A stretch of 64,000 nt of DNA. Source: an uncultured Dehalococcoidia bacterium. Lineage in GTDB: Bacteria; Chloroflexota; Dehalococcoidia; Lucifugimonadales; JADFKI01. Positions 1 through 16,827 of the stretch are shown here, in pieces. Position 1 is the first letter of the stretch. Every line of letters begins with the position of its first letter. The stretch is from contig CAZWDM010000002.1 of NCBI GenBank assembly GCA_964632415.1, positions 3,039 through 67,038 of the forward strand, written 5' to 3'. The notes below the pieces were generated by a model. It searched no databases, had not been told where the DNA came from, and worked only from the letters and a program-made list of their open reading frames with translations. The translations under genes and the position numbers were made by a program.

Positions 1-21
1 GCACTTCCGAGTTCCAAGGGC

Positions 22-2427
22 TTGCAGGGGGCATTGATGATCAGTTACGACGAACTGGAACGGGAGAACCAGACGCTGCGAGACCAGCTTTCCCGGCTGA
101 GCGAAGCGAGCCTCCGGATCAACCAGAACCTCGATCTCGACACGGTGCTGCAAGGCGTGCTGGACTCCGCCCGCTCCCTTACCGGCGCCAGGTACGGGGT
201 GATCACCCTAAACGACGAAGGGGAACGGGTACAGGACTTCCTCTCCTCCGGCATGAGCGCAGAGGAGGCTCGGAAGATCTGGGACACTCCCGATGGGATG
301 CGCATATTCCAGTACCTCGACAACCTCTCGGAACCGCTCAGGTTCCCGGACCTGCTAGGAAGTCTGCGGTCCCTGGGCCTTCCCGAGCTCTCCCCGCCGG
401 CGTCGGTGGGCGAAACCCTGTCCTGCCTGGCCGCTCCTGTCCTCCACCGGGGAGAGCGCGTCGGGAACGTATTCGTCGCCGACAAGAAGGCTGGCAGCGA
501 GTTCTCACAGGAAGACGAGGAGACCCTGGTCAGGTTCGCGTCCCAAGCGGCGCTGGTCATAGCCAACGCCCGCCGCTACAACCGGGAGCAGCGGGCAAGA
601 ATCGATCTGGAGACTCTGATAAACACTTCGCCGGTAGGCGTCGTGATATTCGACGCGATGACTTGCGCACCGGTATCCGTCAACCAGGAGGCGAGACGTC
701 TCGTCGAAGGCCTTAGAGACCGCGACCAGTCCGTTGATCTGATGGAGATCATCACCGTGGAGCGGGAGGACGGACGAAATGTGGCTCTGGACGAGTTGTC
801 TTTGGCGCAGGTGCTGGGCGAGGCGGAAACTGTGCGTGCCGAGGAGGTCGTCATGCGCGTTCCCGACGGTCGGAGCGTCACCGTGCTGGTCAACGCCACG
901 CCGATCCTTAACGGGGACGGCTGCGTCGAGTCCTTTGTCGTGACACTGCAGGACATGACCCACGTGGAGGAGATGGGACGGATGCGCGCCGAATTCCTGG
1001 CCATGGTCAGCCACGAACTGCGCATGCCCCTGGCCACCATCAAAGGTTCCGCCGCCACGGTGCTAGGCGCCCCCGCCTCGATGGGATGGTCCGAGATCGT
1101 CCAGTTTTTCAAGATCATCGACCAGCAGGCCGACCGCGTGCACGACCTCATAGGCGGCCTGCTGGACATAGGGCGCATCAAGTCGGGAACATTGTCGGTC
1201 AACCCCGAACCCACGGATCTGGCCCTCCTGGCTGATGGTGCAAAGAAGGCGTTCGTGAGCGCGGGCGGCAGGAACAGCTTGGAGATCGAGCTGCCTGCCG
1301 ACCTGCCGTGGGTTATGGCAGACCGGGGCCGGATCGTCCAAGTGATGAGCAATCTGCTCTCCGACGCGGCCAGACGCTCGCGCGAAGATCTCCCCATACG
1401 CGTTGCCGCCGTCCGGGAAGACCTTTTCGTCGCGGTCTCCGTGTCGGACGGAAGCGATGAATTGCCGACACGCCTCGTGCCGCAACTGTTCGAGAATTTC
1501 CCCCGTGTCGATGACGGGAACGGGGAAGGCGGTATCGGAGGATCGGGCCTGGTTCTCGCCATCTGCAAGGGGATCGTGGAGGCACACGGGGGACGCATCA
1601 GCGTCGAAAACGACGGACCTGCGTCGCGGTGCACCTTCACACTGCCTGCCGCGGAGGTGCGAGAGGTCGGCGAGACCCCTCCTTCCGGTGTCCAGTTGCG
1701 TCCGTCATCGCAGGAGCAAGTGCGTATACTCGTTGTGGGTGGCGATCCCGAGACGCTCAGGTTCGTGCGCGACACCCTGACGAGGGCGGGATACTCTCTG
1801 ACGGTAACGGGAGATTCGAACGAGGTGCCACGCCTCATGGAGGAGCGTAATCCTCACTTGGTACTGTCGGACGTGTTGCGGCCGGGGGCCGGCGGCATCG
1901 AGTTTATGGACACGATTCTGTCGACGCTCGATGTGCCGGTGATTTTCCTGTCGGCGTACGGGGAAGAGGGACTGATCGCCCGGGCCTTCGACATGGGAGC
2001 CACCGACTATATCGACAAGCCCTTCTCACCGACTGAGCTTTTGGCGAGGATCAGGGTAGCCCTGAGGAGCCAGTCGACGCCCCCTTGGGCCGTATCACCC
2101 CCTCCCTACTCAATCGGAGATCTGACCATCGACTACGCAGAGCGCCGGGTAACGGTTGCCGGGCGTCTCGTGCAGCTCACCGCCACCGAGTACGAGGTTC
2201 TCCAGCTGCTCTCGACGATGTCCGGGCGGGTATTGACCCACGACCAACTGTTGCAACGGGTGTGGAGCCCGGACAGGAAGGGCGAACCCTGGCTGGTGCG
2301 CAACGTGGTGAAAAGGTTGCGGCGCAAGCTGGGCGACGACGCGGGCAACCCCATCTACATCTTCACCGAGCCACGAGTCGGCTACCGCATCGCCAAAGGC
2401 GAGGAACCGGGAGAGACGAGGCCGTGA
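22..2427 (+). CDS. Hybrid sensor histidine kinase fused to a receiver and an OmpR-type winged-helix DNA-binding output
   Basis: 801-aa ORF. H-box MVSHELRMPLATIKGS. ATPase region GIGGSGLVLAICKGIVEAHGGRISVEN. Receiver RILVVGGD...LVLSDV...IDKPF. C-terminal wHTH LTATEYEVLQLL...VKRLRRKL...RVGYRI. The frame is open to the window edge, so the 5' end may be truncated. Confidence 0.85.
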   Translation: MQGALMISYDELERENQTLRDQLSRLSEASLRINQNLDLDTVLQGVLDSARSLTGARYGVITLNDEGERVQDFLSSGMSAEEARKIWDTPDGMRIFQYLDNLSEPLRFPDLLGSLRSLGLPELSPPASVGETLSCLAAPVLHRGERVGNVFVADKKAGSEFSQEDEETLVRFASQAALVIANARRYNREQRARIDLETLINTSPVGVVIFDAMTCAPVSVNQEARRLVEGLRDRDQSVDLMEIITVEREDGRNVALDELSLAQVLGEAETVRAEEVVMRVPDGRSVTVLVNATPILNGDGCVESFVVTLQDMTHVEEMGRMRAEFLAMVSHELRMPLATIKGSAATVLGAPASMGWSEIVQFFKIIDQQADRVHDLIGGLLDIGRIKSGTLSVNPEPTDLALLADGAKKAFVSAGGRNSLEIELPADLPWVMADRGRIVQVMSNLLSDAARRSREDLPIRVAAVREDLFVAVSVSDGSDELPTRLVPQLFENFPRVDDGNGEGGIGGSGLVLAICKGIVEAHGGRISVENDGPASRCTFTLPAAEVREVGETPPSGVQLRPSSQEQVRILVVGGDPETLRFVRDTLTRAGYSLTVTGDSNEVPRLMEERNPHLVLSDVLRPGAGGIEFMDTILSTLDVPVIFLSAYGEEGLIARAFDMGATDYIDKPFSPTELLARIRVALRSQSTPPWAVSPPPYSIGDLTIDYAERRVTVAGRLVQLTATEYEVLQLLSTMSGRVLTHDQLLQRVWSPDRKGEPWLVRNVVKRLRRKLGDDAGNPIYIFTEPRVGYRIAKGEEPGETRP

Positions 2428-2527
2428 AACACTTGACGAAGCTCGAGGATCTGGGCGGGCGGCCACTCTCGTCACTGTGAACAGACTTGCAACGCGGGGA
2501 AGGTGCATGGATGCGATACCGTCGGCC

Positions 2528-2971
2528 CTAGCGCGTTAATCGGGTAGACGCTTCACGGCAGCCCACCAGCCCGTTTGGTCTGGACGGCTCGAATGAGGAG
2601 ATCGGTGCAGCGACAAACGGCCTAAGACGGTTCGGAGGCATTCGGGCATCGCGTTCCGCCCGACCGGACCACTCTGCAACGGCGGCCGGAACGTGGAGTA
2701 GATTCCAGCCGTCTGCCCTCGGATAGAGCCGGGTTCCATAGGTGCGCAAACGCATGACCTCTCCGTCGGAACGGCGCAGACGCTTTCGGGAGACATATTT
2801 CTTGCGACGCCAGGTCACGATGTAGTATCGGAAATCCTGACCCGATCGCGCATTCAAGCGATGCGGACCCGAAGCGTGATGGTGCATAAAACGTCGCTGG
2901 ACGGCATTGCGAGTCGCTTTACGTTCCTCGAGCCATCCCGATCTGACTGGTCGCGTTCCTCGCCGCTGCAA
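2528..2971 (-). CDS. Hypothetical Arg-rich protein (weak call)
   Basis: 147-aa ORF with no recognisable motif and a very basic composition. It may be a high-GC artefact or a gene remnant. Confidence 0.2.
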   Translation of the reverse strand: MQRRGTRPVRSGWLEERKATRNAVQRRFMHHHASGPHRLNARSGQDFRYYIVTWRRKKYVSRKRLRRSDGEVMRLRTYGTRLYPRADGWNLLHVPAAVAEWSGRAERDARMPPNRLRPFVAAPISSFEPSRPNGLVGCREASTRLTR

Positions 2972-3039
2972 CTCTGGCGGGGTGCATCAACGCCTCGGTA
3001 GGTCGCGCAATCAATCTCCGTTCGCTGCACGATACGTTC

Positions 3040-3068
3040 TTGACATGCTGACGTCTCATTTTTATATC
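3040..3068 (+). promoter_or_regulatory. Sigma70-like promoter candidate
   Basis: TTGACA (3040-3045), 17-nt spacer, TATATC (3063-3068) in a local AT-rich patch. There is no convincing downstream plus-strand ORF, and it points antisense to the 3355-3708 gene. Confidence 0.25.
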
Positions 3069-3354
3069 TTCAACATCATGAACAGGTCTGCTTGTTTCAA
3101 TCGTCGTCACGGCAATAGGCGCACGAAAATCGTGGTCCGAAGCGCTTGTCCCCTCGATCGCCGCGGCAACGGCGGCCGCCTCGCGACCAAGCTGTACGGC
3201 AAGCGGCAGAGAGCGTTGCAATGTTGGCCTGCATCGGCGGACGCACACCGAACGCCCAGATGCAGAAGATCGCGTTGAAGTTGGACAAGCTCGAACGCGC
3301 AGGTTGGCGACACGCCGGCGGAGATGACGGAAACCCGTCGGCGCGGTTCCGGCG

Positions 3355-3708
3355 CTATGGTTGCGCCGCACGCACGTGCCGTGGCGTCTCCTCCTGCCCT
3401 TCCGACTTTTCGCTGGTCGATGTCGTCGAAGAAGCCTCGGCGGCATCGTCAGCGTCCTCAGCGACGGGCATCATGTGATTGAGCAGGTCCATGCGCGCCG
3501 CTAGTTCGAAGAGAGCGTACAAGTGTCCGGAACCAGGTTTCGTTCCGTTGCGCCAACGGTTAACGCTTCGGACGTTGACGCGCAGCTCCCTGGCCAGGCC
3601 GCGCCAGGACAGTCCGGCTGCGGTCTTCAAGCTCTCGAGCATTTCGGGAAACTCCGTTGGAAACGATGACGGTTCGACACGGTACACCCACTGCTGGCGT
3701 CGTCCCAC
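3355..3708 (-). CDS. HTH DNA-binding protein, paralog of 3712-4011
   Basis: 117 aa. LKTAAGLSWRGLARELRVNVRSVNRWRNGTKPGSGHLYALFELA aligns with the neighbouring ORF. Acidic Ser/Thr-rich tail. Confidence 0.55.
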   Translation of the reverse strand: MGRRQQWVYRVEPSSFPTEFPEMLESLKTAAGLSWRGLARELRVNVRSVNRWRNGTKPGSGHLYALFELAARMDLLNHMMPVAEDADDAAEASSTTSTSEKSEGQEETPRHVRAAQP

Positions 3709-3711
3709 TCC

Positions 3712-4011
3712 TCATCTCCGTCGCCGCCGGAGCAGGGCCGGTTCATCCTCGAGCAGCAGGTCCAGCCCTCCGGGAACGTGCCGCGCCAAACGGACGAGCG
3801 ACAGCATCGCGCCTCCGTTCGGCGCGCCGCCTTTGCGCCACCTGTGCAGCTGACGGCTGTCCACTCCCATGCACACGGCCATGCCCTCCCAAGAAAGTCC
3901 GGTCATCTCCTTGAGGACGTCTAGCCTTTCGACGAAATCCTGCGGGATCAATGCGACCCCGAAGGGTATCGGGAAAGGGTTGGCCCTACGCCTGCGCCGG
4001 TTCATCCACAT
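3712..4011 (-). CDS. HTH DNA-binding protein, paralog of 3355-3708
   Basis: 99 aa. LKEMTGLSWEGMAVCMGVDSRQLHRWRKGGAPNGGAMLSLVRLA shares the GLSW-G-A...R-RWR-G-P pattern with the downstream paralog. Confidence 0.55.
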   Translation of the reverse strand: MWMNRRRRRANPFPIPFGVALIPQDFVERLDVLKEMTGLSWEGMAVCMGVDSRQLHRWRKGGAPNGGAMLSLVRLARHVPGGLDLLLEDEPALLRRRRR

Positions 4012-4240
4012 TCTCCAATACGAAAAGGTCTTCGAAATCCGAGACGCCCAGCGCCCTCATCAATCGTCTGCGGGTGTCCGGCGAGGGACATCGTGTGCCG
4101 GTCATGAGCTGCGACAGGTAGCCCGAAGAGATCCCGGACATGCGCGCCAGCTCGTTCTGCGCGATGTTCAGACGGTTGAGAAGCACCCACACTTTGTAGG
4201 GATCCAGTCTCGATCTGCACGAGGGTTTTCTGCGTGTCAC
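3986..4240 (-). CDS. XRE-family HTH transcriptional regulator
   Basis: 84 aa. LNRLNIAQNELARMSGISSGYLSQLMTGTRCPSPDTRRRLMRALGV is a typical Cro/C1 HTH. It overlaps both neighbours, which suggests an operon. Confidence 0.7.
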   Translation of the reverse strand: MTRRKPSCRSRLDPYKVWVLLNRLNIAQNELARMSGISSGYLSQLMTGTRCPSPDTRRRLMRALGVSDFEDLFVLENVDEPAQA

Positions 4241-4563
4241 TCGACGCTCTCCTTGGGCTCGGTCGACGAGCCGCGCCTGGTTGGAAAAGCTCGGCTCGTT
4301 CCTGATCGGTCTCCAAAACTGCCGGGATCGGCCAAGAGTCGGCGCGCGATGATTCGAGCCAGTATCCGTAGGCCGTGCAGCCGAAGCTCGTCCTGTTCGG
4401 GCGTGAGACCCGAGGGTTCGTTGGACAACCCGTTCAGTTCGGTTTCGTCTTCTGGTACGCGTAGCGACATGCTAGAAGGAAAGGTCGTGTCGAATCTGTG
4501 TCGTGCCACAAATCGTAACACTTTGAATGTCGTTCGCAATGATTGCATCTGCATTATTGACAA
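4237..4563 (-). CDS. Hypothetical protein, first gene of the small-regulator operon
   Basis: 108-aa ORF whose stop overlaps the XRE start (ATGA-type junction at 4237-4240). No motif recognised and the start is uncertain. Confidence 0.35.
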   Translation of the reverse strand: MSIMQMQSLRTTFKVLRFVARHRFDTTFPSSMSLRVPEDETELNGLSNEPSGLTPEQDELRLHGLRILARIIARRLLADPGSFGDRSGTSRAFPTRRGSSTEPKESVE

Positions 4564-4570
4564 AGTGTTT
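4516..4570. promoter_or_regulatory. AT-rich divergent control region with an inverted repeat
   Basis: TAACACTTTG (4516-4525) and CAAAGTGTTT (4561-4570) form a 9/10 inverted repeat around TTGACA (4557-4562). GTAACA and TGCAT motifs are repeated. It lies between divergent regulator genes. Confidence 0.3.
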
Positions 4571-4596
4571 GCTAATATGTAACAATAAAATCGCGC

Positions 4597-5043
4597 TTGG
4601 ATACCAAAACCTGCATTGAGTTATTTCGGGCTTGCAGCATATCGATGGACGGACTGGACGAAAACCTTCAACTCGAAATCGGGCCCTTGCTCCGAAGGCT
4701 TCGAGGCGACCTGACCCTGCGCGACGTCAATCGGCGGGCCGGCGTCTCCAGCTCGTATCTCTCGTCCATCGAGCGCGGCGAGCGGCGTCCCGGAAGAAAC
4801 ATCATCCGGAGGCTGGCGGCGGCGTACGGGGTCGACCCTGCCCCCCTGCTCGAACGCGCCGGACACGTTGGCGCCAGACCCGTCGCCGCCGACGAAGATC
4901 CGAATGTCGAGCGCGCCTACCAGTACGTTCTTTCAGACCCGAAGTTCCGATTCGGGACCCGGCCGGAAGGCCCGCTCTCCACAAGCGCGAAGCAGTTCAT
5001 CGTCGAAATGTACGAGAGTCTCACGGGTAAAAGGCTTTTGTGA
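4597..5043 (+). CDS. XRE-family HTH regulator, partner of the downstream ImmA/IrrE-like protein
   Basis: LRRLRGDLTLRDVNRRAGVSSSYLSSIERGERRPGRNIIRRLAAAYGV. The ORF track starts at TTG 4597 and ATG 4645 is a more likely start. The stop overlaps the next gene (ATGA-type junction at 5040-5043). Confidence 0.7.
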   Translation: MDTKTCIELFRACSISMDGLDENLQLEIGPLLRRLRGDLTLRDVNRRAGVSSSYLSSIERGERRPGRNIIRRLAAAYGVDPAPLLERAGHVGARPVAADEDPNVERAYQYVLSDPKFRFGTRPEGPLSTSAKQFIVEMYESLTGKRLL

Positions 5044-6185
5044 CGGGCTGCTTGTTGCATGACTTTTGCCGCGAACTGCTCGCGGACCGGTCATTCGACG
5101 GGACGCTGGAGCCGGAGGGACTGGCCGCCAAGTTCGTCGACCGGTTCCGCGTTTCACGGCGTCCCTCGCTCGAAGAGTTGAAACGTCTGATGCATCAGAC
5201 AGGATTCGGCAGAGTCGAATCCCGCGCGATGGACGCCGCGCTCCGGGGCGCGCATTTCGCGGTCTCGGGGAGCAGCTACCTCATCTGCTATCGCGAAGGC
5301 CTGTGGCGCGGCGCGGCCGAGCACACGGTGCTCCACGAAGCGTTCGAGATCGTCTATGAAACTCTGCTCGACATGCAGGACCGACCGCCTGAGCCCCCGA
5401 CCAAGGCGACCTGCAGGAGAGCGGACCGATTCGCGGCGGCGGTGCTGATGCAGCCCGAAGTCTTCGCGGCCCGTGCGAAAGGCTGCGGATTCGATGTGAT
5501 CGCGCTGCATCGTGAGTTCGGCCGTTCGTTCGCGTCGATCACGATGCGCCTGGCGGAGGTTTTGGACGACCCGGCGTTCATGGCCGTCCTGTACGAGACC
5601 AGATACGGTCGGCTCCACAGGGACCGGAAGGAGCGGCGGGGCGACGGCGCGCTGCGCGCTTCGGTGGTCTGTCGCAAGCCGGAGTTCGAAGATCGGGCAT
5701 CGCATTCGTCGCAACTCCTGCGCGGATGCGGGTCGATGCGGGGCATGACGCCCAAGAACGGCTCGTTGGCGGCGAGGGCCGCGCGAACCGGCAGGTCGCT
5801 GTACGCCGAGTCGGAACGGAACGCCTCCGATGAAAACGGCTTTGCAGCAGTCGCGCGCCCGGTGATCTGGCGAAGAAGGCTCACCAAGGTCATCGTCGTA
5901 GCAGTGCCGTACGAGCAACGCGAATGTCTCGCGCCCCAGCTGTCGGCTTCCAGATTCGAGCGACTGCGAATCGGGTTGGCCCGTTCGGACTCGCGCGGCG
6001 GACGTCGATGCCGTCCTCGGCGGTGGGACGAGACGTTCATCGTCGGCGCTTTGCGCGAGTCCGTGCTTCCGTCCAAGCGCCTCGCAGATCCGGCCGGGCG
6101 AGGCGGCCGACGGACTCCCGCACGCCGAGCGTCCCTCTCTTCGCCAGTCGAAACCGCTCAATGGGCGATTGGTGCTAATCTGTAG
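5040..6185 (+). CDS. ImmA/IrrE-like (DUF955-type) protein with a variant metal motif
   Basis: The layout TVLHEAFEIVYE...RADRFAAAVLMQPEVF...FGRSFASITMRLAEV matches the ImmA/IrrE fold. The canonical HEXXH reads HEAFE, with the second His replaced by Glu. The C-terminal third is Arg-rich and may be frame-corrupted. Confidence 0.55.
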   Translation: MTGCLLHDFCRELLADRSFDGTLEPEGLAAKFVDRFRVSRRPSLEELKRLMHQTGFGRVESRAMDAALRGAHFAVSGSSYLICYREGLWRGAAEHTVLHEAFEIVYETLLDMQDRPPEPPTKATCRRADRFAAAVLMQPEVFAARAKGCGFDVIALHREFGRSFASITMRLAEVLDDPAFMAVLYETRYGRLHRDRKERRGDGALRASVVCRKPEFEDRASHSSQLLRGCGSMRGMTPKNGSLAARAARTGRSLYAESERNASDENGFAAVARPVIWRRRLTKVIVVAVPYEQRECLAPQLSASRFERLRIGLARSDSRGGRRCRPRRWDETFIVGALRESVLPSKRLADPAGRGGRRTPARRASLSSPVETAQWAIGANL

Positions 6186-6235
6186 CGACATCCCTCCCGA
6201 TGGGAGCAATTGCAGACGACTGGGGCGCCGGCGCG

Positions 6236-6919
6236 ATGTGCGGACGTTTCGGACTTTACACAGACTTGGCGGAGCTTGTTGAGATCCTCGGCTTCGAGCT
6301 GCCTATGCCGATGGAAGTTTACGGTCCGCGCTGGAACATCGCGCCGACATCCGACGTGCTGACCATCATCGATGGCGACGGTGCGCGTGAAGGAGCGATG
6401 ATGCGCTGGGGTTTGGTACCCGTCTGGGCGAAACCCGAGACTGCTTTCAAGCGTCCCATGTTCAACGCTCGATCGGAGACCGTCGCAGAACGCCCCATGT
6501 TCCGCAGCTCGTTCAACCGGCATCGCTGCCTGGTTCCCGCCAACGGTTTCTTCGAGTGGCGACGTGAAGAAACGGGCGGCAAGACGCCGATGTGGATCTA
6601 CGACGCCGAGACGCCCGTCGTCACTTTCGCAGCGATATCGAGCACCTGGCAGGGCCCCGACGGCGTTGTGAAGTCCTGCGCGATCCTGACGACGTCGCCG
6701 AACTCGTTGATGTATCCAATCCATGATCGGATGCCGGTGATTCTGGACCGCGAATGGGCGGATGTATGGCTGGACGATGCCGCCGACAAAGCGGTGTTGA
6801 TGGAGGCTCTGAAGCCGCGCGAGTGGGAATCCATGCAGGCTCTTGAGGTCGATCCGGCGGTCGGTTCGACGCGCAACGACGGGCCGCATCTCATCAGACC
6901 ACGGGCGTCGCTGCTTTAG
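6236..6919 (+). CDS. SOS response-associated peptidase (SRAP / YedK / HMCES family)
   Basis: MCGRFGLY...WNIAPTS...MRWGLVPVWAK...FNARSETV...RCLVPANGFFEW. The family needs Cys2 as the N-terminal nucleophile, so ATG 6236 is preferred over the track start at 6200. Confidence 0.85.
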   Translation: MCGRFGLYTDLAELVEILGFELPMPMEVYGPRWNIAPTSDVLTIIDGDGAREGAMMRWGLVPVWAKPETAFKRPMFNARSETVAERPMFRSSFNRHRCLVPANGFFEWRREETGGKTPMWIYDAETPVVTFAAISSTWQGPDGVVKSCAILTTSPNSLMYPIHDRMPVILDREWADVWLDDAADKAVLMEALKPREWESMQALEVDPAVGSTRNDGPHLIRPRASLL

Positions 6920-6935
6920 CAACAAACCTGCCAAG

Positions 6936-6963
6936 TTGCATTTTAGCATTTTTATGCTATATT
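6936..6963 (+). promoter_or_regulatory. Promoter with an embedded palindromic operator upstream of imuB
   Basis: TTGCAT (6936-6941), 16-nt spacer, TATATT (6958-6963). The spacer contains TAGCAT-TTTT-ATGCTA (6944-6959), a perfect 6-4-6 inverted repeat. The imuB ATG is at 6980. Confidence 0.4.
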
Positions 6964-6979
6964 AGACGCGCACAGAACC

Positions 6980-8185
6980 ATGTTTATCGCTTGCGTCAAG
7001 ATCCCGCATCTGCCGATTCAGTGCGAAGCTGCCAGATCTCCCGATCTGCGCGGAAAGACCGTGATCGTCTATCACGGCGAGGAATCGCGCCCAGTCGTTC
7101 TCGACGCCTCTTCGAAGGCGAATATCCGACGCGGAACATCTCTCGTCAGAGTGATGTCTCAGATTCCCGATGCGGCGGTCATCCGTGCCGATAAAGATCT
7201 TTACGACGCGAGCTGGAACGAAGTTGTCAAAAGCCTGCTCGACATCAGCGATCGCGTCGAAGACGCGGCGCGGGGCACCGCGTTCGTAGCCATCGACGGG
7301 CTGTACGACCTTTACGGCGGTCGAGACCAGACCTTGGATACGATTTCCAAAGCGATGACCGAACACGGTTTGGACGCTCTGATCGGCGTCGCTCCCGGGC
7401 GGTTTCCCGCGTACTGCGCCGCGATCGGAGCACGCCCCTCCGAGCCGCTTAGACTGCCCGGCAGCCGAAGCGAGGTCAAGGAGTTCCTGGCCCCGATGCC
7501 GGTCGATCTCCTGCCGCTCGACAGTCGCGCCATCGACCTTTTGCACGACTTCGCGCTGGACACGATGGGAGATCTGGCGATGCAGTCCGTTTCGGCTTTG
7601 CAGGCGCAGCTCGGACCCGACGGACGGCGCGCCTGGGAACTGGTGAACGGCGTCGACCGGACAAGGCTCGACACCATCGAAAGATCGGAGAAGGTGGTCG
7701 ATTCGTTCGAGTTCGCCTGGCCGGCCTCCAGCATGGACGCCATTTCGTTCGGCGTGCGAACGCTCCTCGACCGTGCATTTGCCTCCGTGGAAAGCATCGG
7801 CAAGGCTGCCGGCCGAATGGACCTCACCTGCGAGATGTCCGACTCCGAGCGGTGGAGCTACGCGCACACCTTCAAAGAACCTACCGATTCCGCCATGCTC
7901 GCCCACAGCGTCGTGATGACACGCGTGGAAACGATAACGCAGAGCGATGCATCCCCGATACGAAGCCCTATAGAGAACATCTCGGTCGAATTGTCACGTC
8001 TCGGGCAGGCACGAGCCGAGCAGTCCGGACTTTGGAGAGAACACAGATCGGGCGATCTGGATACCGCTTTCCGTCAATTGACGGCAAAGACGGGATCGTC
8101 CCCGATCAAGAAGATAGTGGAGGTGGAGCCATGGTCTCGAATACCAGAAAGACGTCTGGCGTTCGCGGAAGTTACGAGCCCCTGA
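6980..8185 (+). CDS. imuB: ImuB-like catalytically inactive Y-family polymerase paralog
   Basis: 401 aa in a Y-family polymerase context. The N-terminus FIACVKIPHLPIQ lacks the DxD acidic pair, and VAIDGL replaces SIDE. It lies immediately upstream of dnaE2. Confidence 0.8.
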   Translation: MFIACVKIPHLPIQCEAARSPDLRGKTVIVYHGEESRPVVLDASSKANIRRGTSLVRVMSQIPDAAVIRADKDLYDASWNEVVKSLLDISDRVEDAARGTAFVAIDGLYDLYGGRDQTLDTISKAMTEHGLDALIGVAPGRFPAYCAAIGARPSEPLRLPGSRSEVKEFLAPMPVDLLPLDSRAIDLLHDFALDTMGDLAMQSVSALQAQLGPDGRRAWELVNGVDRTRLDTIERSEKVVDSFEFAWPASSMDAISFGVRTLLDRAFASVESIGKAAGRMDLTCEMSDSERWSYAHTFKEPTDSAMLAHSVVMTRVETITQSDASPIRSPIENISVELSRLGQARAEQSGLWREHRSGDLDTAFRQLTAKTGSSPIKKIVEVEPWSRIPERRLAFAEVTSP

Positions 8186-8433
8186 ACCTGCCGGTGCCGG
8201 TGCAGGTCGTCGTCACGCTGGACGGAAAACTGGCAAGAATCGTCGAAACGCGCAAAGGCCGTCCTGTTCGGTCGCAGGTGGACCGCGTCATGGAGATATG
8301 GGAGCTGGACGACGAGTGGTGGCGAACGAGACCGATCAAGCGGCGCTACTGCAAACTGCTCACGGACTCCGGGCGTGTCCTGACGGTCTTCAAAGACCTG
8401 ACCAGCGACGAATGGTTCCGTCAAGAATACTGA
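8131..8433 (+). CDS. Small conserved-looking protein between imuB and dnaE2
   Basis: ATG 8131 is preceded by GGAGGTGGAG and overlaps the imuB 3' end in another frame. 100 aa with VMEIWELDDEWWRTRPIKRRYCKLLTDSGRVLTVFKDL. It ends 3 nt before the dnaE2 start. Confidence 0.5.
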   Translation: MVSNTRKTSGVRGSYEPLNLPVPVQVVVTLDGKLARIVETRKGRPVRSQVDRVMEIWELDDEWWRTRPIKRRYCKLLTDSGRVLTVFKDLTSDEWFRQEY

Positions 8434-8436
8434 GCC

Positions 8437-11400
8437 ATGACGCGATACGTCGAACTGCGAGCTATGAGCTGGTACTCCTTCATGGAGGGAGCGTCGTCCA
8501 CCGACGAGATGCTCGCACGCGCACATGAACTCGGCTACGACGCGTTGGCCCTGGTCGACCGCAACAATGTCACCGGCGCTCTAGAGTTCGCGGAAGCCGC
8601 GGACGAGCTGGGGATCAAGCCCATCATCGGCGTCGCCCTGAAGCTCCGCGACGAAGACGGCGATGACGATGAGACTCTGCCCGTCACGTTGCTGGCCGAG
8701 AACCAAGAAGGCTACGCCAACATGTGCAACCTGATATCCTTCGCGCACGTCGGTTCGGGTCGCGTCGATCCTGTGCTTTCTTCTCGCCACTTGCAGAACC
8801 GCACCGACGGTATGATCGCCTTGATCGGAGAACCGGAGAGCCGCATCGCGGATCTCGCCGTCGACGGCGCGATGTCCCATGCCGACGGAATCGTCCAACG
8901 CTTCATCGAATGGTTCGGCGAACAAAACTTGTTCATCGAGCTGCAGCGCCATTGGGTGCACGGCGACTTGGAACGCAACCGCGCGCTCGCCGCACTCGCG
9001 GAGCGCAACGATGTCGGCGTAGTCGCCACCGGCGGAGTCTGCTACCACGAACGGGGACGCAGCCGCCTGCACGACGTCTTGACCGCCATTCGTCACAACC
9101 TCACGCTCGAAACCTCCCATCGCCAGCGCAAGGCCAACTCGCACTACGAGCTGAAATCCCCCGAACGCATGGAGAAGATTTTCCGAGAGTGGCCCGAGGC
9201 GGTCGAGAATTCGCGCCGCATAGCCGACCGTTGCGAGGCTTTCAGCGTCGAACAGATAAACTACCGGTTCCCCCGCGAATCCGTTCCAGACGAGTTTTCA
9301 GATGAGCAGGAGTACCTCGAACACGTCTGCAACGAGGCCGCGAGACGCCGCTACGGACGCATCACCGACAAGGTCCGGGAACGCTTGGACCGCGAGTTCA
9401 GACTCATCGAAAAGCACGGTCTGGCCGGATTCTTCCTGCTCTACAGACGCGTCATCTCGCTGGCGCAAGACGTGGCGGTCGAACTCGGACATTCCTCGGT
9501 CGAGATCCCCATCGAAGAACAACCGCCGGGACGCGGACGAGGGTCGTCCGTCGCCATGCTGGTCGGAACCCTCATCGGGCTCTCCCACATCGACCCCCTC
9601 GAATACGACCTTCCGCTGGAACGCTTCATCTCCGACGACGAGCTGGTGAACGCGCCGGACATCGACCTGGACTTCCCGCGCGACATCCGCGAAGCGCTGA
9701 TACTCCGCGTCTTCGAAGAGTTCGGCTGGGACCACGCGGCCCTGACCGCGATGCTCCCCACCTACAGGCTGAAAGGCGCGGTGCGCGACGTCGGCAAGGT
9801 TCTCGGGCTCCCTCCCCTCGAACTCGACATGCTGGCCAAAAGAGCGGAATCGCGCGACGCCGCCGATCTCGCCTCCGAGATGGAACGCATACCAGAGCTT
9901 GAAGACAAGATCAATCTGCCGGGATGGCGCGACCTCGTCAAGATCGGAGCGCAGCTGCAAGGCTTTCCCAAAGGACTGGCTCAACATCCCGGAGGCATGA
10001 TCATAAGTTCGACGCCGCTCATCGACATCACGCCGGTCCAGCCCAGCGCAAAAGAGGGACGATACATCTGCCAGTGGGACAAGCACGGAGCCGACAGCGC
10101 CGGATTCCTCAAAATCGACTTCCTGTCTCTGGGCGCTCTGTCGCAGATGCAGGAATGCCTGCAACTCATCGAGAAGCGCACCGGATCGCGCATCGATCTC
10201 ACCCGCATCGACTTGGACGACGAAGCGGTCTACGACGATCTTTGTCGCGGAGACACGGTCGGTGTGTTCCAAGTCGAGTCCGCGGCGCAGATGCAGACCA
10301 TCACACGCCTGCAGCCGCGCAACCTCTACGACTTGGCGCTGGAAGTCGCGGCTGTGCGTCCTGGCGTTGGCGCCAACGGCGGCGTGTCGGAATTCATCCG
10401 CAGACGCAACGGCAAAGATTGGGAATACGATCATCCGCTCGAAAAGCGCGCGCTCGAAAAGTCCCTTGGCATCATCCTGTTCCAAGACCAGGTGGTGACT
10501 CTGGGCATCGACGTCGGCGGCATGACCGCGTCGGAATCCGACCAGATGAGGCGCGCCTTCCAGCGCCGCAACAACGAAGCCCTGATTAGGCGCTACTGGG
10601 ATCGTTTCCGCGACGGCGCGGCCGAACGCGGGGTGCCGGAGAACATCGCCGACAAGATCTTCCTCAAGTTCAATCCCCACTACATGTTCCCGGAGGGTCA
10701 CGCGCTCGCGTTCGGCGTAACCGCCTACCACATGGCATGGCTTCGACTTCACTATCCCACCGAGTTCTACACCGCGATCTTTAACGCGCAGCCCATGGGA
10801 TTCTGGCCGCCGGAGACGCTGAAGCAGGACGCGAAGCGTAGAGGCGTCGCCATATTCAACCCGGACGTGAATCTCAGCCAGGACAAATGCACCCCTCTGG
10901 GAGAAAACGCCTTCAGACTCGGCCTGACATCCGTGCGTGGCATCAACGAACAATCCGCGAGAACCATCATCAAAAACCGCGATTGGAACGGGCTGTACGA
11001 GTCGTTCTCTGATCTCGTTTCGCGCTCAGGCATGGAGCGCAAGGCGCTCCAAAACCTCGTCAAAGCAGGAGCATGCGACGATTTGCAGGGAATCGACGAA
11101 AGAAGATTCGCTCTGTGGGAAGTCGGTCTCCGCTACCAGCCCAGCGGTTCGCAGGGACGGCTCCAACTCGATGTCATCCAAGACATGGCTGCTCTCAAAC
11201 CCGCTGGTCCAATCGACCTCATGACGTACGAATACGAAACCCTGGGCCTGTGGACGAAGGGACACATCATGTCTACCATGCGCGACATGCTGGCCGAACA
11301 CCACATCTTGAGCAGCAAGCAGCTGGACGACAAATCGGATGGAGAGCGCGTAGCCGTAGCCGGCAAGGTGCTCAGACGCCAGCAGCCTCTCGGCAGGATG

Positions 11401-11625
11401 GTCTTCATGACTCTCGAAGACGAGTTCGACATGATACCCCTCGCTGTACCACCCGCAACTTGGAAGAAACACCGCGACGCTCTGCTGATGCCCATCATCA
11501 TCGCCGAGGGCGAAGTATCACGCAAAGACGGCACCATGAACATCACGGTCCACCGAGCATCGCCGCTCATACCTCCCTATGCCTCACGCGCCGAAATACC
11601 AGACATCAGCCACAACTTCAGGTGA
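8437..11625 (+). CDS. dnaE2: Error-prone DNA polymerase III alpha subunit DnaE2
   Basis: 1062 aa. N-terminal PHP domain (YVELRAMSWYSFMEGASS), a polIII alpha core (GFLKIDFLSLGALS, VFQVESAAQM), and the typical position after imuB. Confidence 0.95.
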   Translation: MTRYVELRAMSWYSFMEGASSTDEMLARAHELGYDALALVDRNNVTGALEFAEAADELGIKPIIGVALKLRDEDGDDDETLPVTLLAENQEGYANMCNLISFAHVGSGRVDPVLSSRHLQNRTDGMIALIGEPESRIADLAVDGAMSHADGIVQRFIEWFGEQNLFIELQRHWVHGDLERNRALAALAERNDVGVVATGGVCYHERGRSRLHDVLTAIRHNLTLETSHRQRKANSHYELKSPERMEKIFREWPEAVENSRRIADRCEAFSVEQINYRFPRESVPDEFSDEQEYLEHVCNEAARRRYGRITDKVRERLDREFRLIEKHGLAGFFLLYRRVISLAQDVAVELGHSSVEIPIEEQPPGRGRGSSVAMLVGTLIGLSHIDPLEYDLPLERFISDDELVNAPDIDLDFPRDIREALILRVFEEFGWDHAALTAMLPTYRLKGAVRDVGKVLGLPPLELDMLAKRAESRDAADLASEMERIPELEDKINLPGWRDLVKIGAQLQGFPKGLAQHPGGMIISSTPLIDITPVQPSAKEGRYICQWDKHGADSAGFLKIDFLSLGALSQMQECLQLIEKRTGSRIDLTRIDLDDEAVYDDLCRGDTVGVFQVESAAQMQTITRLQPRNLYDLALEVAAVRPGVGANGGVSEFIRRRNGKDWEYDHPLEKRALEKSLGIILFQDQVVTLGIDVGGMTASESDQMRRAFQRRNNEALIRRYWDRFRDGAAERGVPENIADKIFLKFNPHYMFPEGHALAFGVTAYHMAWLRLHYPTEFYTAIFNAQPMGFWPPETLKQDAKRRGVAIFNPDVNLSQDKCTPLGENAFRLGLTSVRGINEQSARTIIKNRDWNGLYESFSDLVSRSGMERKALQNLVKAGACDDLQGIDERRFALWEVGLRYQPSGSQGRLQLDVIQDMAALKPAGPIDLMTYEYETLGLWTKGHIMSTMRDMLAEHHILSSKQLDDKSDGERVAVAGKVLRRQQPLGRMVFMTLEDEFDMIPLAVPPATWKKHRDALLMPIIIAEGEVSRKDGTMNITVHRASPLIPPYASRAEIPDISHNFR

Positions 11626-11764
11626 CTCGGCATATTCGAATCAGATCCTGATCTGAGACACGTGAGAATCATTCGACGCATACGGATGGTTGGTTCATAT
11701 AGACGGAAACGCGTCAACCTGCACGCTGAACCATTGGCAGAACGCGCAACGAGTGAACCTGTGG

Positions 11765-13315
11765 TTATGCCGGACCACGAACAACTCGTCCAGCACGGTC
11801 GAAAGGAGGGTTTGACAACGGCCTGTAGACGTCGATGATTTCATCATCGAACTCGTGCCGTTCCAACAGCGCGTCGATCGCGACTTGGGCGATCAGCGCC
11901 GCGCACGCAGCCACCGAAGCAGGGGGCGCGTTGTTCGCCGGTGCTGAACATCCGAGATGAGGTTCTGCAAACTCCTCAGCATCGTTTCCGGCTGGAATGA
12001 GAGGATAACGATCCGAATGTTCGCGCTGGTTGATCGGCACGTCCGACGACAAGTCTTGACGTTGGACGCGAGCAATGGATCCGCCTCGATAGAGCGCTCC
12101 GGAGACATACGGGAACTTCGAATGAACCGCCAGTTGCGAGATGGAGTAAACCAGAGCTTCGTTGCCTGTTGTGTCGACGACGATGTCTGAGTCAGCGATG
12201 GGCTGGAGAATCTCATCTGGAGTGCGGCACAGCATAGCGGAGGCTTTGACAAGACACCATGGCGCGTGATTTGCGACCTCGGACTTGACCGCTTCCGCCT
12301 TGAGGGCGCCCACCTGATCGTGACCGGCTACGTGCCTCACGACGTTTTCAGGCAGCAAGACGTCTGGGTCGACGATGTGGAGGGACCCGACACCGCTCTC
12401 CGCGAGCAAAGTCGAAGTGTGCCCGCCCAAAGCGCCCGCACCGAAAACGACCGCCTTGGATCGGCGAAGCGCGCGGGCGTCCGGTCCAGCACGCATGATG
12501 AGGCTTTTTTCGTCTTTCGGTCCCGGTTGCAAAGCGACCGCCTCCATTCCGTTGGGTGTGTCCTGAAACGCCAAGACGAGAAGGTGTGTTCGGTTGCGAC
12601 GCTGCCAGCCGAAGAGCACAAGGTCCAAACCGCCGCTCGGCGCCAGTGAACCAGTCGATTTTCGTTTGGACTGCTCGCGTTTCAGCGTTCTGCGTGAAGG
12701 TCTGGGCAAAAGATTCTCGACTTCGGCTAGGTTGCGCGGCGGTGTTCTGCTGAGACTACCCACGTGGAACCACATTCCTCGGAGCTGATCCGACGACCGT
12801 CTGGTGCCGGCCTCGATGTCCACCCGCTGGCGGTCGAGGGGGATCGAACCGTAGAATTCGCCTCGACCGCCGCTCCGGATCCCGAGCGAATCCAGATCGA
12901 AAGTGGCCACGATCCGGCTTCGCCGCTGGAAGTTCAACAGTGCGTCCTGTGCCAGATCGTCGTTCCTCCATCGGTTGATCGCCTCGTCGCACCATTCTTG
13001 AATCCTCCGGTTCAACCCGTCGAGCGTCGTCCATTCCAGAGAGAAGTCTCCATCTTGCCACAAACAGACGAAACCGTCCGCCGTCGAATGGCTCGTGTCG
13101 AGACCCGGCACCAGCAGCACCGGCGGTTGGAACGGCCAACCGGGCTGGATGACGATGAGCATCGTGTCCGCATCGGTCAACGACTCGAAGGCGGGGTGGA
13201 TCCTGCCGATCCAACGGTGAGGCCGGGAATCAGGTACGAACGTGAACCCGGCCTGCGCCAGTTCGGAGGTGAAGCTCTGGAAGGAATCCAGATCAAAGTG
13301 TTCGCTTTGCGACAC
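11765..13315 (-). CDS. cap2: CBASS Cap2-like E2-E1 fusion protein
   Basis: The N-terminal UBC-like region has a candidate Cys (ADGFVCLWQDGD). The C-terminal ThiF/E1 Rossmann region reads VVFGAGALGGHTSTLLAESGVGSLHIVDPD. It follows the CD-NTase with a 2-nt gap. Confidence 0.85.
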   Translation of the reverse strand: MSQSEHFDLDSFQSFTSELAQAGFTFVPDSRPHRWIGRIHPAFESLTDADTMLIVIQPGWPFQPPVLLVPGLDTSHSTADGFVCLWQDGDFSLEWTTLDGLNRRIQEWCDEAINRWRNDDLAQDALLNFQRRSRIVATFDLDSLGIRSGGRGEFYGSIPLDRQRVDIEAGTRRSSDQLRGMWFHVGSLSRTPPRNLAEVENLLPRPSRRTLKREQSKRKSTGSLAPSGGLDLVLFGWQRRNRTHLLVLAFQDTPNGMEAVALQPGPKDEKSLIMRAGPDARALRRSKAVVFGAGALGGHTSTLLAESGVGSLHIVDPDVLLPENVVRHVAGHDQVGALKAEAVKSEVANHAPWCLVKASAMLCRTPDEILQPIADSDIVVDTTGNEALVYSISQLAVHSKFPYVSGALYRGGSIARVQRQDLSSDVPINQREHSDRYPLIPAGNDAEEFAEPHLGCSAPANNAPPASVAACAALIAQVAIDALLERHEFDDEIIDVYRPLSNPPFDRAGRVVRGPA

Positions 13316-13317
13316 GG

Positions 13318-14415
13318 CTAACCGAATCTTCTAGCCTCGTTGCGACGCGCTGCCGGAACCGCTGCCGTGGAGACACCTTTGCGTGCCAGACCCGAGAATC
13401 TCGTGGTCGAAGCATCGGCGCCCGGGACAGGTGATCTTCCGTCGGAACTGTTTTCGGTGTCGATCCCTTTGCCGAACTTATCGCCAAACAGTTCTCTCCA
13501 CGTTTTTACCGATTTTCCGGTAGACGATTCATCTTTGGCTTTCGCGGCGGTCTGCGCGTGCGAGTGGACTCTGTTCCTGAAATTCGCATACTTGGTCTGG
13601 TCCCAATGACGGTTGAAAGTTTCGGTCGACAGGACCGGGTTCCTGATCTCCGGCATGTCCGGATGCTCCTGGAGGTATTCGTCCATTCGAGTCAAGACGG
13701 TCACCAAGGTGTCCGCAACAGTTCGGACGGCCTCTGTCCCTTCGTCTTCAGGTTCGATGGCGTTACCAGCCAGCGTGGTCAGCAGAATCGACTTGACCGA
13801 GTAATTGTTCTTGTGGTCCCGCAGGAATTTGAGCAGTCTGACGACGCGCCTGAGGTTGCCGTCGGTGATCCGGTTCTTCTCGTTGAACCATTCACGGTAT
13901 CCCGTCCCGTCCGTTTCTTCGAATTCGTTTTCGATCCGATTGCAGACGTGGTGCTGACCATCCTCCGTGACACGCGGCACCACGTCCAGGTGAAAGTCGC
14001 CTGCGTAGTCCACTGTCGCGCAGCGGGTTTTCCGCCTCACTTTGTCGGCGTAGGTGTCGTTGTCCTTGAGCGTGCCGTGAACCTCGTTGACGTAGTCTTT
14101 CGGGTCCCAGTCGTCGTTGGGATTCATCACGATCTGTATGTCGGCGTCGTACTCGTCGTTGTCGTCCACCGGCTTGATCAGCGTTCCCAGGGCGTACGAG
14201 CCTTGGGGCTCCATCTTTTGATAGCCGGTCAGGTTGTCCCCTAGGTACTTGTCAACCGCTCCGACGCTCGTCTTCAAACGCTCGCGTCGGTCTTTGTTCA
14301 GGTTGACCTCTTCTCTGAGGAAGTCTTTGAACTCTTGGATGTTCTTTGTCAATGCTTGCTCCTTGCGAAGTCGTGTAATTTGTTCATCGTCGGTCTGCGA
14401 TGTTTCGGTCTCCAA
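13318..14415 (-). CDS. CD-NTase (cGAS/DncV-like nucleotidyltransferase, SMODS type)
   Basis: QGSYALGT (GS motif), EYDADIQIV (DxD) and GDFHLDVVP (third Asp). The C-terminus ends ...EARRFG. Confidence 0.85.
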   Translation of the reverse strand: METETSQTDDEQITRLRKEQALTKNIQEFKDFLREEVNLNKDRRERLKTSVGAVDKYLGDNLTGYQKMEPQGSYALGTLIKPVDDNDEYDADIQIVMNPNDDWDPKDYVNEVHGTLKDNDTYADKVRRKTRCATVDYAGDFHLDVVPRVTEDGQHHVCNRIENEFEETDGTGYREWFNEKNRITDGNLRRVVRLLKFLRDHKNNYSVKSILLTTLAGNAIEPEDEGTEAVRTVADTLVTVLTRMDEYLQEHPDMPEIRNPVLSTETFNRHWDQTKYANFRNRVHSHAQTAAKAKDESSTGKSVKTWRELFGDKFGKGIDTENSSDGRSPVPGADASTTRFSGLARKGVSTAAVPAARRNEARRFG

Positions 14416-14422
14416 CTGGCAC

Positions 14423-15337
14423 TTATTCCGTCCTTCGGACGCTGTTCATGATGTCCGCGCCATGCAGCGCGAAGTCCCTCATCGCCATCGCTTTGAGGTT
14501 TTCCAGGTGCGTAACATCGTCCAAATCCCAAGCCTCGATCTCGGGGTCCATGCGCAGAAACCGCTCGCCCAGCAGCAGCTTGGCGATGTTGGAAGCAGAT
14601 TGAGATTGCAGGCTCAGGAAGTACGAGACCAGCTTCCGCCGTCCCCATCCGGTCAGCAGTCCCCAAGACCTGTGGCTCGAATACAAGGTCGCGGATCGTC
14701 CCGTGCCTATGGAAAGGACCGAGAGCCGGTCGATGGGAATCCGAAACTTTGAAACCGCCTCGGTTATGGCGATCGCGGACGGATTGTTCGCCCACAGGCC
14801 GCCGTCGGCGAGAGTGAAATCACCGACCGTCACAGGATCGAAGAATGTAGGTGCCGCGCACGACGCGAGAATCGCGTCTGCCAAGGCAACGCCCGCGTCC
14901 CTGACGTAAGGCTCGCCCAAATCCTTCAGGTAGCCGGATTTGAACACATGCACGCTGCCGGTGGTGATGTCCGAACTCGTGATCATCAGCGGCGTCGGGA
15001 CCTCTCCCATCGTAACGTCGCCGACGCACCCCCGGATCACATCACCCAGAGGATTTGTCGGATACTTGCTTCTGACATTCAACCAGCTGAAAGGCCTCCT
15101 GCGGAAGATCAGAGGCGAATCGGTTGTGAACAGTTTCGCCACTTCCGCCAAAGGCACGTCGGCCGCCGCGGCTCCCGCGATGATGGATCCGGTGCTGGTG
15201 CCGGCGATCAGGTCGAAATGTTCTCGCAACGGCGCGTCGCTCTCGCGCTCTATCAACGCGAGAAGCTGCGCCGTGTATATGCCTCTGGCCCCGCCTCCGT
15301 CCAGGCTGAGAATCTTGAATGTCGCTTCTGACTTCAT
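14423..15337 (-). CDS. capV: Patatin-like phospholipase CBASS effector (CapV-like)
   Basis: ILSLDGGGARG oxyanion motif, IAGTSTGS (GxSxG), LADGGLWANNP (DG dyad). Confidence 0.9.
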   Translation of the reverse strand: MKSEATFKILSLDGGGARGIYTAQLLALIERESDAPLREHFDLIAGTSTGSIIAGAAAADVPLAEVAKLFTTDSPLIFRRRPFSWLNVRSKYPTNPLGDVIRGCVGDVTMGEVPTPLMITSSDITTGSVHVFKSGYLKDLGEPYVRDAGVALADAILASCAAPTFFDPVTVGDFTLADGGLWANNPSAIAITEAVSKFRIPIDRLSVLSIGTGRSATLYSSHRSWGLLTGWGRRKLVSYFLSLQSQSASNIAKLLLGERFLRMDPEIEAWDLDDVTHLENLKAMAMRDFALHGADIMNSVRRTE

Positions 15338-15371
15338 GGTCGTTTCGATAACGAATCGTTGTCCGATATGC

Positions 15372-15388
15372 GTTGAAATTCAACTCAA
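15372..15388 (-). promoter_or_regulatory. Candidate CapH operator between capP and capV
   Basis: GTTGAAATTCAACTCAA on the plus strand is the reverse complement of the 17-mer at 16446-16462. It contains the palindrome TTGAA-N-TTCAA and sits in the 74-nt capP-capV spacer. Confidence 0.5.
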
Positions 15389-15411
15389 CATATGACTCTA
15401 TCACAACGAAT

Positions 15412-16415: not shown

Positions 16416-16445
16416 GACTGCTCCTGTTTGGCACCTTACTTGAAA

Positions 16446-16462
16446 TTGAGTTGAATTTCAAC
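16446..16462 (+). promoter_or_regulatory. Candidate CapH operator upstream of capH
   Basis: TTGAGTTGAATTTCAAC is identical, in inverted orientation, to 15372-15388. It lies inside the longer inverted repeat TTGAAATT-N6-AATTTCAA (16440-16461) and overlaps a plausible TTGAAA-17-TAAGGT minus-strand promoter. Confidence 0.5.
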
Positions 16463-16786: not shown

Positions 16787-16810
16787 TCAGAATATATAAT
16801 ATATTTCTGA
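16787..16810 (+). promoter_or_regulatory. AT-rich imperfect palindrome and -10 box upstream of abiEi
   Basis: TCAGAATATATAATATATTTCTGA has TCAGAA/TTCTGA arms and includes TATAAT (16795-16800). It lies 18 nt upstream of the abiEi GTG start. Confidence 0.4.
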
Positions 16811-16827
16811 CGAAAAGGAGAATTAAA

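Follow-up and report, generated by a model that had tools for sequence, protein, structure and literature searches.

Few bacterial damage responses that do not rely on LexA are known; they include IrrE/DdrO, PafBC, DriD and DdiA. Here, we describe a locus that could be read as a further case. It occupies positions 4597 to 11625 of a 64,000-nucleotide stretch of DNA (hereafter the window) from an uncultured Dehalococcoidia bacterium (GenBank assembly GCA_964632415.1, contig CAZWDM010000002.1, positions 3,039 to 67,038). Genes for an XRE-family repressor and an ImmA/IrrE-like protein (together, the pair) are followed by genes for an SRAP protein and for error-prone polymerases (the mutasome). 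An earlier note on this DNA proposed that the pair gives LexA-independent damage induction of the mutasome. On balance, we think it somewhat more probable that the pair is the immunity module of a mobile element. The mutasome would then be neighbouring cargo, in the integrase slot, that keeps its own promoter and operator. This is better supported than rewiring of the mutasome by the pair.

Several described systems resemble parts of the locus. In Bacillus subtilis, ImmR of the element ICEBs1 autoregulates the immR-immA-int operon, and expression is roughly constitutive (PMC5812530). As in ICEBs1, an XRE repressor gene overlaps a gene for a COG2856/M78-fold protein. Similarly, small genes of the element run divergently from the pair, which has a co-directional integrase next to it in most of its relatives and is placed at the end of the integrated element. 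Unlike ICEBs1, which has a tyrosine integrase, the elements described here have a large serine recombinase that targets tRNA ends. The protease-like protein has the size of IrrE, a C-terminal domain that resembles GAF, and HExxE where HExxH is usual; in the window, SRAP and the mutasome fill the integrase slot. In Deinococcus, IrrE (or PprI) and DdrO form a chromosomal global regulator with a regulon defined by the radiation/desiccation response motif (RDRM). The best structural matches of our ImmA-like protein are IrrE/PprI and, of proteins with a solved structure, DdrO matches the XRE protein best by sequence. The likeness extends to a two-protein, damage-sensing logic independent of LexA, which at our locus is predicted from the genes. 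However, two of three predicted metal ligands are changed in the ImmA-like protein, and inspection by eye revealed no RDRM-like 17-bp palindrome in either of the two promoters described below.

Split imuY/imuB-C/dnaE2 cassettes are known from Deinococcus (PMC8072749) and from a 2026 polymerase survey (PMC12926913). The window cassette likewise encodes a Y-family protein of ~400 residues, an ImuB-C protein of ~80-100 residues, and DnaE2, in this order, with no imuA. Hence, it differs from classical imuA-imuB-dnaE2 cassettes in that RecA-fold imuA or imuA', upstream of imuB, is missing. The Deinococcus cassette is controlled by LexA, not DdrO (PMC8072749), and lexA is the first gene of the operon there. 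In contrast, no LexA domain is encoded in the window or its contig, SRAP is upstream, and the copy follows an XRE/ImmA module within accessory DNA that is mobile. In Myxococcus xanthus, the XRE regulator DdiA is tied to LexA-independent dnaE2 expression as an activator, direct or indirect; the sections of that report on which we draw describe no partner protease (PMC12288472). The window XRE is likened to DdiA by description only, and regulation by the window pair is predicted. Finally, Aravind, Anand and Iyer noted DUF955 metallopeptidases in ImuB-C/DinB neighbourhoods in 2013, and proposed an extra SOS-linked proteolytic step (PMC3765255). Our locus also has a zincin-like M78/DUF955 protein near ImuB-C and an SRAP-containing SOS module. 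That paper described neither an HTH (helix-turn-helix) partner nor a mobile-element origin, whereas here the association is traced to a predicted immunity module of integrative elements.

The XRE/ImmA-like pair across Dehalococcoidia

To place the pair in its family, one genome per species was scanned for the ImmA-like protein, which has 381 residues. This gave 188 relatives, nearly all from Dehalococcoidia, and the best 80 of the 188 loci were compared. An XRE gene is directly upstream of the ImmA-like gene in all 80. A small HTH gene lies opposite the XRE gene, in divergent orientation, in 75. A large serine recombinase gene, in the same direction, is within 6 kb downstream of the pair in 76 and within 700 bp in 62. 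Furthermore, of 25 loci checked, 14 have a tRNA gene exactly where the recombinase gene ends on its 3' side, and many different tRNAs are represented among them. The family layout is thus small divergent HTH genes, XRE, ImmA-like gene, large serine recombinase, tRNA gene. Because the recombinase is so often present, and often has a tRNA gene at its 3' end, we conclude that the pair is, as predicted from gene order, the regulatory (immunity) module at the end of an integrative element, one of a Dehalococcoidia family with serine integrases that target tRNA genes. The mutasome is behind the pair at one of the 80 loci only, a copy in G001, a complete, metagenome-assembled Dehalococcoidia chromosome. 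(Our labels for genomes, contigs and loci begin with G, C and L; G000 is the window's own assembly, and C2 its contig.) Hence, a serine integrase, and not the mutasome, is the usual neighbour of the pair. By the same reckoning, the pair is not a dedicated regulator of the mutasome.

SRAP-imuY-imuB-C-dnaE2 is in the integrase slot in one sublineage only. At L009, SRAP remains behind the pair as fragments. No integrase is adjacent to the window copy of the pair, the nearest being 85 kb downstream on the contig. This large serine recombinase gene (G000:C2:99440-101008), on the same strand and right at the end of the 101-kb contig, shares 56% identity with the recombinases of the element family; it could be the integrase of a large element that takes in the window. 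In G001, a search at 545-585 kb, the far end of a homologous element, found no integrase. G001 also has a second regulatory module (L097:9972-10995; G001:C1 ~469,970-470,990), 81% identical, with its ImmA-like gene frameshifted, falling into three frames, and with no mutasome. At many loci (L011, L014, L034, L045 and L066 among them), a second, convergent serine recombinase gene, with ~55% identity, comes right after the first. This suggests tandem or nested elements at one tRNA site.

The earlier note had named the pair correctly, as an XRE repressor and an IrrE/ImmA-fold protein. The XRE gene (4645-5043, + strand) starts at ATG 4645, not TTG 4597, giving 132 residues as in all relatives. The product is DdrO-sized and matches HTH_31 (E=5e-14). 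Among solved structures, its best sequence matches are DdrO proteins of the same length (6jq1 and 6rnx), with the match covering the HTH only. The ImmA-like gene (5040-6185, + strand) overlaps the XRE gene by a GTGA junction (GTG 5040 over TGA 5041-5043), not one of ATGA type as had been reported. The 381-residue product has a weak, below cut-off match to Pfam M78 (E=0.0055), whereas PF06114 is recognised in homologues. Modelling with AlphaFold2, for which 58 relatives were aligned, gave a pLDDT (predicted local distance difference test) score of 77, with an Arg-rich tail disordered from around residue 313. Foldseek matched the model to PprI/IrrE (8sln, 8slm, 3dte and 3dti; TM-scores of 0.62-0.65 on target) and to Mycobacterium tuberculosis PrpR (6cyj), with E values from 2e-9 to 2e-7. 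The three-part fold of IrrE, comprising a peptidase-like domain, a linker, and a GAF-like domain, is matched.

Note that the predicted metal site is altered. In the family alignment (the window protein and 58 relatives), HExxE (H99, E100 and E103) replaces HExxH in 58 of 58 aligned members. Cys125 is also invariant in the 58, at the position of the third-ligand Glu in M78 proteases, as are Cys10 and His72; elsewhere, the zinc site is HExxH...E. Since HExxE and Cys125 occur in all 58 aligned members, proteolytic competence of the protein is in question. PrpR is a sensor-regulator and not a protease. Given the altered site, and PrpR among the folds that match best, the family may not be proteolytic.

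Selection on the two genes also differs. Comparing the window with mutasome-linked relatives, dN/dS is 0.11-0.18 for XRE, 0.34-0.36 for the ImmA-like gene, 0.07-0.11 for SRAP, and 0.17-0.19 for ImuY. These values place XRE, SRAP, and ImuY under purifying selection. The ImmA-like gene is the least constrained in the block, has been lost repeatedly, while XRE was kept, and is dispensable in the mutasome-linked sublineage. The small HTH gene divergent from XRE has a dN/dS near 0.1. In the window, four small genes make up this leftward block (3355-4563, - strand). They encode proteins of 108 residues, 84 residues (Cro-like, HTH_3), 99 residues, and 117 residues (HTH-like); the Pfam HTH_3 match, at 3986-4240, has E=5e-10.

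The split cassette and its genomic contexts

All genes that the earlier note listed for the block (XRE HTH, ImmA/IrrE-like, SRAP, Y-family, a small open reading frame, and dnaE2) are present, on the + strand, where it had placed them. The pair is, as it also held, transcriptionally contiguous with SRAP and the mutasome, and no terminator-like site above chance separates genes of the block. SRAP (YedK/HMCES-like; PF02586, E=1e-62) is encoded at 6200 or 6236 to 6919 (+ strand). It probably starts at ATG 6236, which would give a Met-Cys N-terminus; gene calls in relatives are of 227-228 residues. SRAP is the sole gene between the ImmA-like and Y-family genes, and no imuA-like open reading frame is there. 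The Y-family polymerase-like gene (6980-8185, + strand; IMS, E=5e-12, and IMS_C) encodes 401 residues without an ImuB-C domain. The next gene (8131-8433, + strand), which overlaps its 3' end, encodes 100 residues that align to the last 85 residues of the genome's two fused ImuB proteins, on contigs C30 and C7 (BLASTP, E=1e-12 and 7e-8). Hence, the small gene encodes a stand-alone ImuB-C domain protein, and the cassette is of the split imuY/imuB-C/dnaE2 kind. The earlier note was right about a Y-family gene but had it as a single imuB, followed by a small open reading frame, where the two parts are split. DnaE2 (8437-11625, + strand; 1062 residues) matches NF004225 (E=1.4e-247) and has PHP, DNA_pol3_alpha, finger, and HHH_6 domains.

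We rejected a single, frameshifted imuB as the source of the two reading frames, since the arrangement of 401 and 100 residues recurs in more than 10 independent assemblies. The trio is found in 9 relatives and, in all relatives, the 100-residue gene is called at the matching position. ImuY shares 31% identity with the fused ImuB proteins of this genome, and 59-79% with its 401-residue relatives; a metagenome scan with ImuY gave distant relatives only. The fused forms belong to two more cassettes in the same genome (G000 C7:41390-47422 and C30:18767-23402), each with fused imuB (483-499 residues) and dnaE2, the DnaE2 being ~46% identical to that of the window. SRAP is downstream of the fused cassette on C7.

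Cassette contexts vary. At L004, XRE, the ImmA-like gene, and SRAP accompany the cassette. At L135 and L136, XRE and SRAP do so, and the ImmA-like gene is a remnant of ~230 nt, with an internal deletion that leaves its two ends only. Note that the cassette is intact in L136 despite this deletion. At L161, SRAP and the cassette are beside an opuA operon, without XRE or ImmA, and with no trace of the ImmA 3' end. The cassette alone is found behind aro genes and thiS (L137, L145, L146 and L147), behind hemA/hemL (L144), and behind an Fe-S protein gene (G176). Cassettes in the aro-thiS, hemA, and opuA contexts, which are ordinary chromosomal surroundings without XRE or ImmA, have ImuY proteins 66-77% identical to that of the window. 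Five loci retain XRE alongside the cassette. The ImuY tree joins the SRAP-linked, XRE-less L161 clade, as sister group, to the window and L135 (100/99 support); L004 and L136 form a separate clade.

The window copy is part of a 21-kb block that encodes two hybrid sensor kinase-regulators, the XRE/ImmA module, the mutasome, CBASS (cyclic oligonucleotide-based antiphage signalling system), and AbiE. Between the window (1-18112; G000:C2:166-21150) and G001 (C1:2541129-2562089), the block is 96-97% identical, whereas neighbouring syntenic DNA is only 78-86% identical. It is absent from 12 genomes of the same genus. Taken together, these differences indicate an accessory block that was, to judge by identity, recently exchanged between genomes. 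A possible alternative is that the contig was mis-binned: G000 is a metagenome-assembled genome of 207 contigs, 92.6% complete, with 7.9% contamination. The type II CBASS operon (11765-16415, - strand) is convergent with dnaE2 and encodes Cap2 E1/E2, a CD-NTase, a patatin, CapP (HEAGH), and CapH. The earlier note saw here a second such pair, driving CBASS, and with it a hint of shared damage-sensing logic. However, CapP, an M78 protein with HEAGH, and the 381-residue protein are unrelated in sequence (E=0.58), leaving an analogy only. L004 has a different CBASS, with a Cap15 effector, at the position matching that of the window. We also considered the region from 1 to 22 kb (58-62% GC) as a low-GC island, which is wrong; the genome mean is 59%, and it is a stretch of 68-73% that is unusual.

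Promoters and LexA-type boxes

Two promoters are predicted in the block. P1 (4500-4594, + strand), found by promoter scan upstream of XRE, has a TTGACA element (4557-4562), an 18-nt spacer, and TG-n-AACAAT ending at 4586. P1 also has a 9-bp inverted repeat, AACACTTTG/CAAAGTGTT (4517-4525 / 4561-4569). The blocks ATCGTAACA, TGTTTGC, and ATGTAACAAT are invariant across 7 diverged loci, and the promoter core recurs in 74 related loci. P2 (6936-6963, + strand), upstream of imuY, comprises TTGCAT, a 16-nt spacer, and TATATT. The spacer holds a perfect palindrome, TAGCAT-N4-ATGCTA (6944-6959). None of the conserved P1 blocks is present in P2. For SRAP, no separate promoter could be recognised at XRE-linked loci. 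The gap between the ImmA-like and SRAP genes (6186-6236), which holds the 8-bp palindrome GCAATTGC, is highly conserved among these loci and absent from the XRE-less L161 locus.

The palindrome at P2 is conserved independently of the pair. All 11 cassette loci, six of which have no XRE/ImmA, carry at this position a 16-bp box that reads TAG[CT]A[CT]-N4-[AT]T[GA]CTA or nearly so. Variants include TAGAAC-AAAT-ATACTA, TAGCAC-AATA-ATGCTA, TAGCAA-ATTT-GTGCTA, and TAGCAT-GTTG-TTGCTA. Since the box keeps its place at all eleven loci, those without XRE included, we conclude that this putative operator belongs to the cassette, and travels with it, rather than to the pair. One other perfect copy of the P2 palindrome is all that a search of G000 for a wider regulon found, in an uninformative context.

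What might recognise P2? The earlier note saw no lexA, which is true of the window and, as we find, of the whole assembly; no LexA domain is encoded in the window, the contig, or any other contig of G000. Of 31 genomes (G000 and 30 relatives), 29 have lexA above the curated cut-off. G000 and one relative lack it, while each of the 18 relatives from the same genus has it. G001, whose copy of the block is 96-98% identical, has lexA too. Hence, given this distribution, the missing lexA reflects a gap in an incomplete assembly and not the biology of the lineage.

The note also recognised no known LexA box. No canonical box is in the block, but the P2 palindrome does resemble LexA-type boxes. In the promoters of the fused cassettes on C7 and C30, the DNA that separates a perfect TTGACA from the -10 element holds Cheo-like boxes (CGTACATCCGTTCG and CGCACAAGTGTTCG). 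The lexA promoters of four related genomes have TAnnAC-N4-GTnnnA boxes; recA promoters of four related genomes have no box in common with P2. A GnAC-N4-GTnC core is common to the C7 and C30 boxes, the lexA-promoter boxes of the four relatives, and perfect TAG[AC]AC-N4-GT[GT]CTA palindromes at other places in those genomes. In chromosomal P2 boxes, one half-site fits GnAC or GTnC. The window palindrome agrees with TAG[AC]AC-N4-GT[GT]CTA at 10 of 12 defined positions, missing both core positions; the LexA consensus of the lineage is itself a prediction. We infer that P2 is a LexA-type (GnAC-N4-GTnC) operator by descent, possibly weakened.

Searches with related boxes gave further sites. A perfect TAGCAC-N4-GTGCTA is just upstream of a gene for the terminase large subunit in G002 and G001, and of a prohead protease gene in G176 (loci L153, L156 and L157, in that order). 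A related box is between tubulin/FtsZ-like and MmcB-like genes (L154 and L159). These TAGCAC-N4-GTGCTA sites may mark a common damage regulon that includes phage-like clusters. The lexA-promoter box of G001, TACTAC-N4-GTAGTA, was tried as a LexA motif and proved uninformative, as the sites that resemble it across the genome belong to a promoter element that is repeated and seems to be non-coding. Four places in G001 (L148-L151) have this element: TTGACT or TTGACA, a spacer with GACAACATTTGTAGTA or TACAACATCTGTTGTA, and a -10 element, with no convincing open reading frame after it. One copy is near a terminase-like gene.

Control of the mutasome

The explanation that we favour starts from observed gene content, family synteny, protease loss in relatives, and conservation of both promoters. 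XRE bound at P1 would control transcription of its own gene, the ImmA-like gene, and SRAP. Because SRAP has no recognisable promoter in XRE-linked loci, it is most likely P1-dependent. Read-through from P1 into imuY would be possible, and is likely, since no terminator above chance intervenes. However, imuY, imuB-C, and dnaE2 would be driven mainly by P2, under the operator inherited with the cassette. The proteins that bind P1 and P2, and any damage response, are predicted. Some observations weigh against this explanation. The window P2 box has AT...AT where the proposed consensus has AC...GT at the two core positions, so that binding by LexA may be poor or absent. In this lineage, the LexA box is itself deduced from sequence, and some look-alikes precede phage-like terminase or prohead-protease genes. 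Even in elements that have otherwise decayed, XRE is intact and constrained where it adjoins SRAP and the mutasome, which would fit co-option. A position weight matrix for the XRE promoter motif also has sites near P2 that rank 7th and 19th of 128,000 positions; these have low scores, are AT-rich, and were not counted as evidence.

Co-option would mean that the pair has become the main damage switch of the mutasome: DNA damage would activate the IrrE-like protease, XRE would be cleaved, and P1, perhaps together with P2, would be relieved of repression. Induction of SRAP-imuY-imuB-C-dnaE2 would then not need LexA. The genes adjoin one another in one direction without a terminator between them, and a DdrO-like XRE with an IrrE fold suits a damage-responsive pair. 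Retention of XRE with the cassette in five loci, at the low dN/dS given above, and the change of both LexA-like core positions in mobile copies, point the same way. There are also precedents, in LexA-independent dnaE2 control that depends on an XRE protein, DdiA, in Myxococcus (PMC12288472), and in the linkage of DUF955 metallopeptidases with ImuB-C and DinB (PMC3765255). Conversely, L135 and L136 no longer have the protease, the cassette of L136 being intact, and the protease gene is the least constrained of the block. L144 and L161 share the 'decayed' P2 box without having XRE, and P2 lacks the blocks conserved at P1. With HExxE, not HExxH, proteolysis is only putative. Furthermore, ICEBs1 genes behind immA are roughly constitutive and not damage-induced (PMC5812530). 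We consider co-option unlikely. The induction proposed in the earlier note thus retains the contiguity and identity of the pair in its favour; integrase linkage, protease loss, a separate imuY promoter, and lexA in the lineage weaken it. A more specific form is more doubtful again. In this form, host LexA would have yielded control of the mobile mutasome to the IrrE/DdrO-like switch of the carrier element; the LexA-type box in P2 would have lost both core positions, and XRE-controlled P1 would give damage induction. If true, it would make a self-contained, transferable, damage-inducible mutagenesis module that works whatever the LexA specificity of its host.

P2 might instead answer to a host factor, neither LexA nor the neighbouring XRE, that recognises TAGCAY-N4-RTGCTA, making the pair irrelevant to imuY-dnaE2. 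The perfect TAGCAC-N4-GTGCTA sites before phage-like genes in G001, G002, and G176 would be consistent with this, as would recA promoters without such a box and lexA-promoter boxes, in the same genomes, that differ at positions 3-4. However, the GnAC-N4-GTnC core is common to the Cheo-like boxes of the C7 and C30 imuB promoters, and a half-site is at the G176 lexA promoter. Phage-like clusters, too, are commonly under LexA control. We hold such a factor to be improbable, to much the same degree as a transfer of control from LexA. Lastly, the locus could be a pure relic: a decayed element, with the pair on its way to loss and without regulatory effect on any downstream gene. No integrase is beside the pair, and the leftward block is cut short; in related copies, ImmA has a deletion or a frameshift, and L009 has SRAP fragments only. 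Yet XRE and the divergent HTH gene have dN/dS values near 0.1, P1 is invariant across loci, and SRAP, under strong constraint (dN/dS 0.07-0.11) without a recognisable promoter of its own in XRE-linked loci, most likely depends on P1. Of the explanations considered, we give this the least credence.

Our data suggest that, in Dehalococcoidia, an error-prone polymerase cassette and SRAP travel between genomes on accessory DNA, beside defence systems, and that the cassette occupies the integrase slot of a decayed tRNA-targeting element. They also define a large HExxE variant family of IrrE-like proteins, putative peptidases. The metallopeptidase-ImuB-C neighbourhood noted in 2013 may have a mobile-element origin, at least in this lineage. 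Were the pair to control the polymerases, the locus would be a portable, LexA-independent mutagenesis switch, and would join the few damage responses that do not use LexA.

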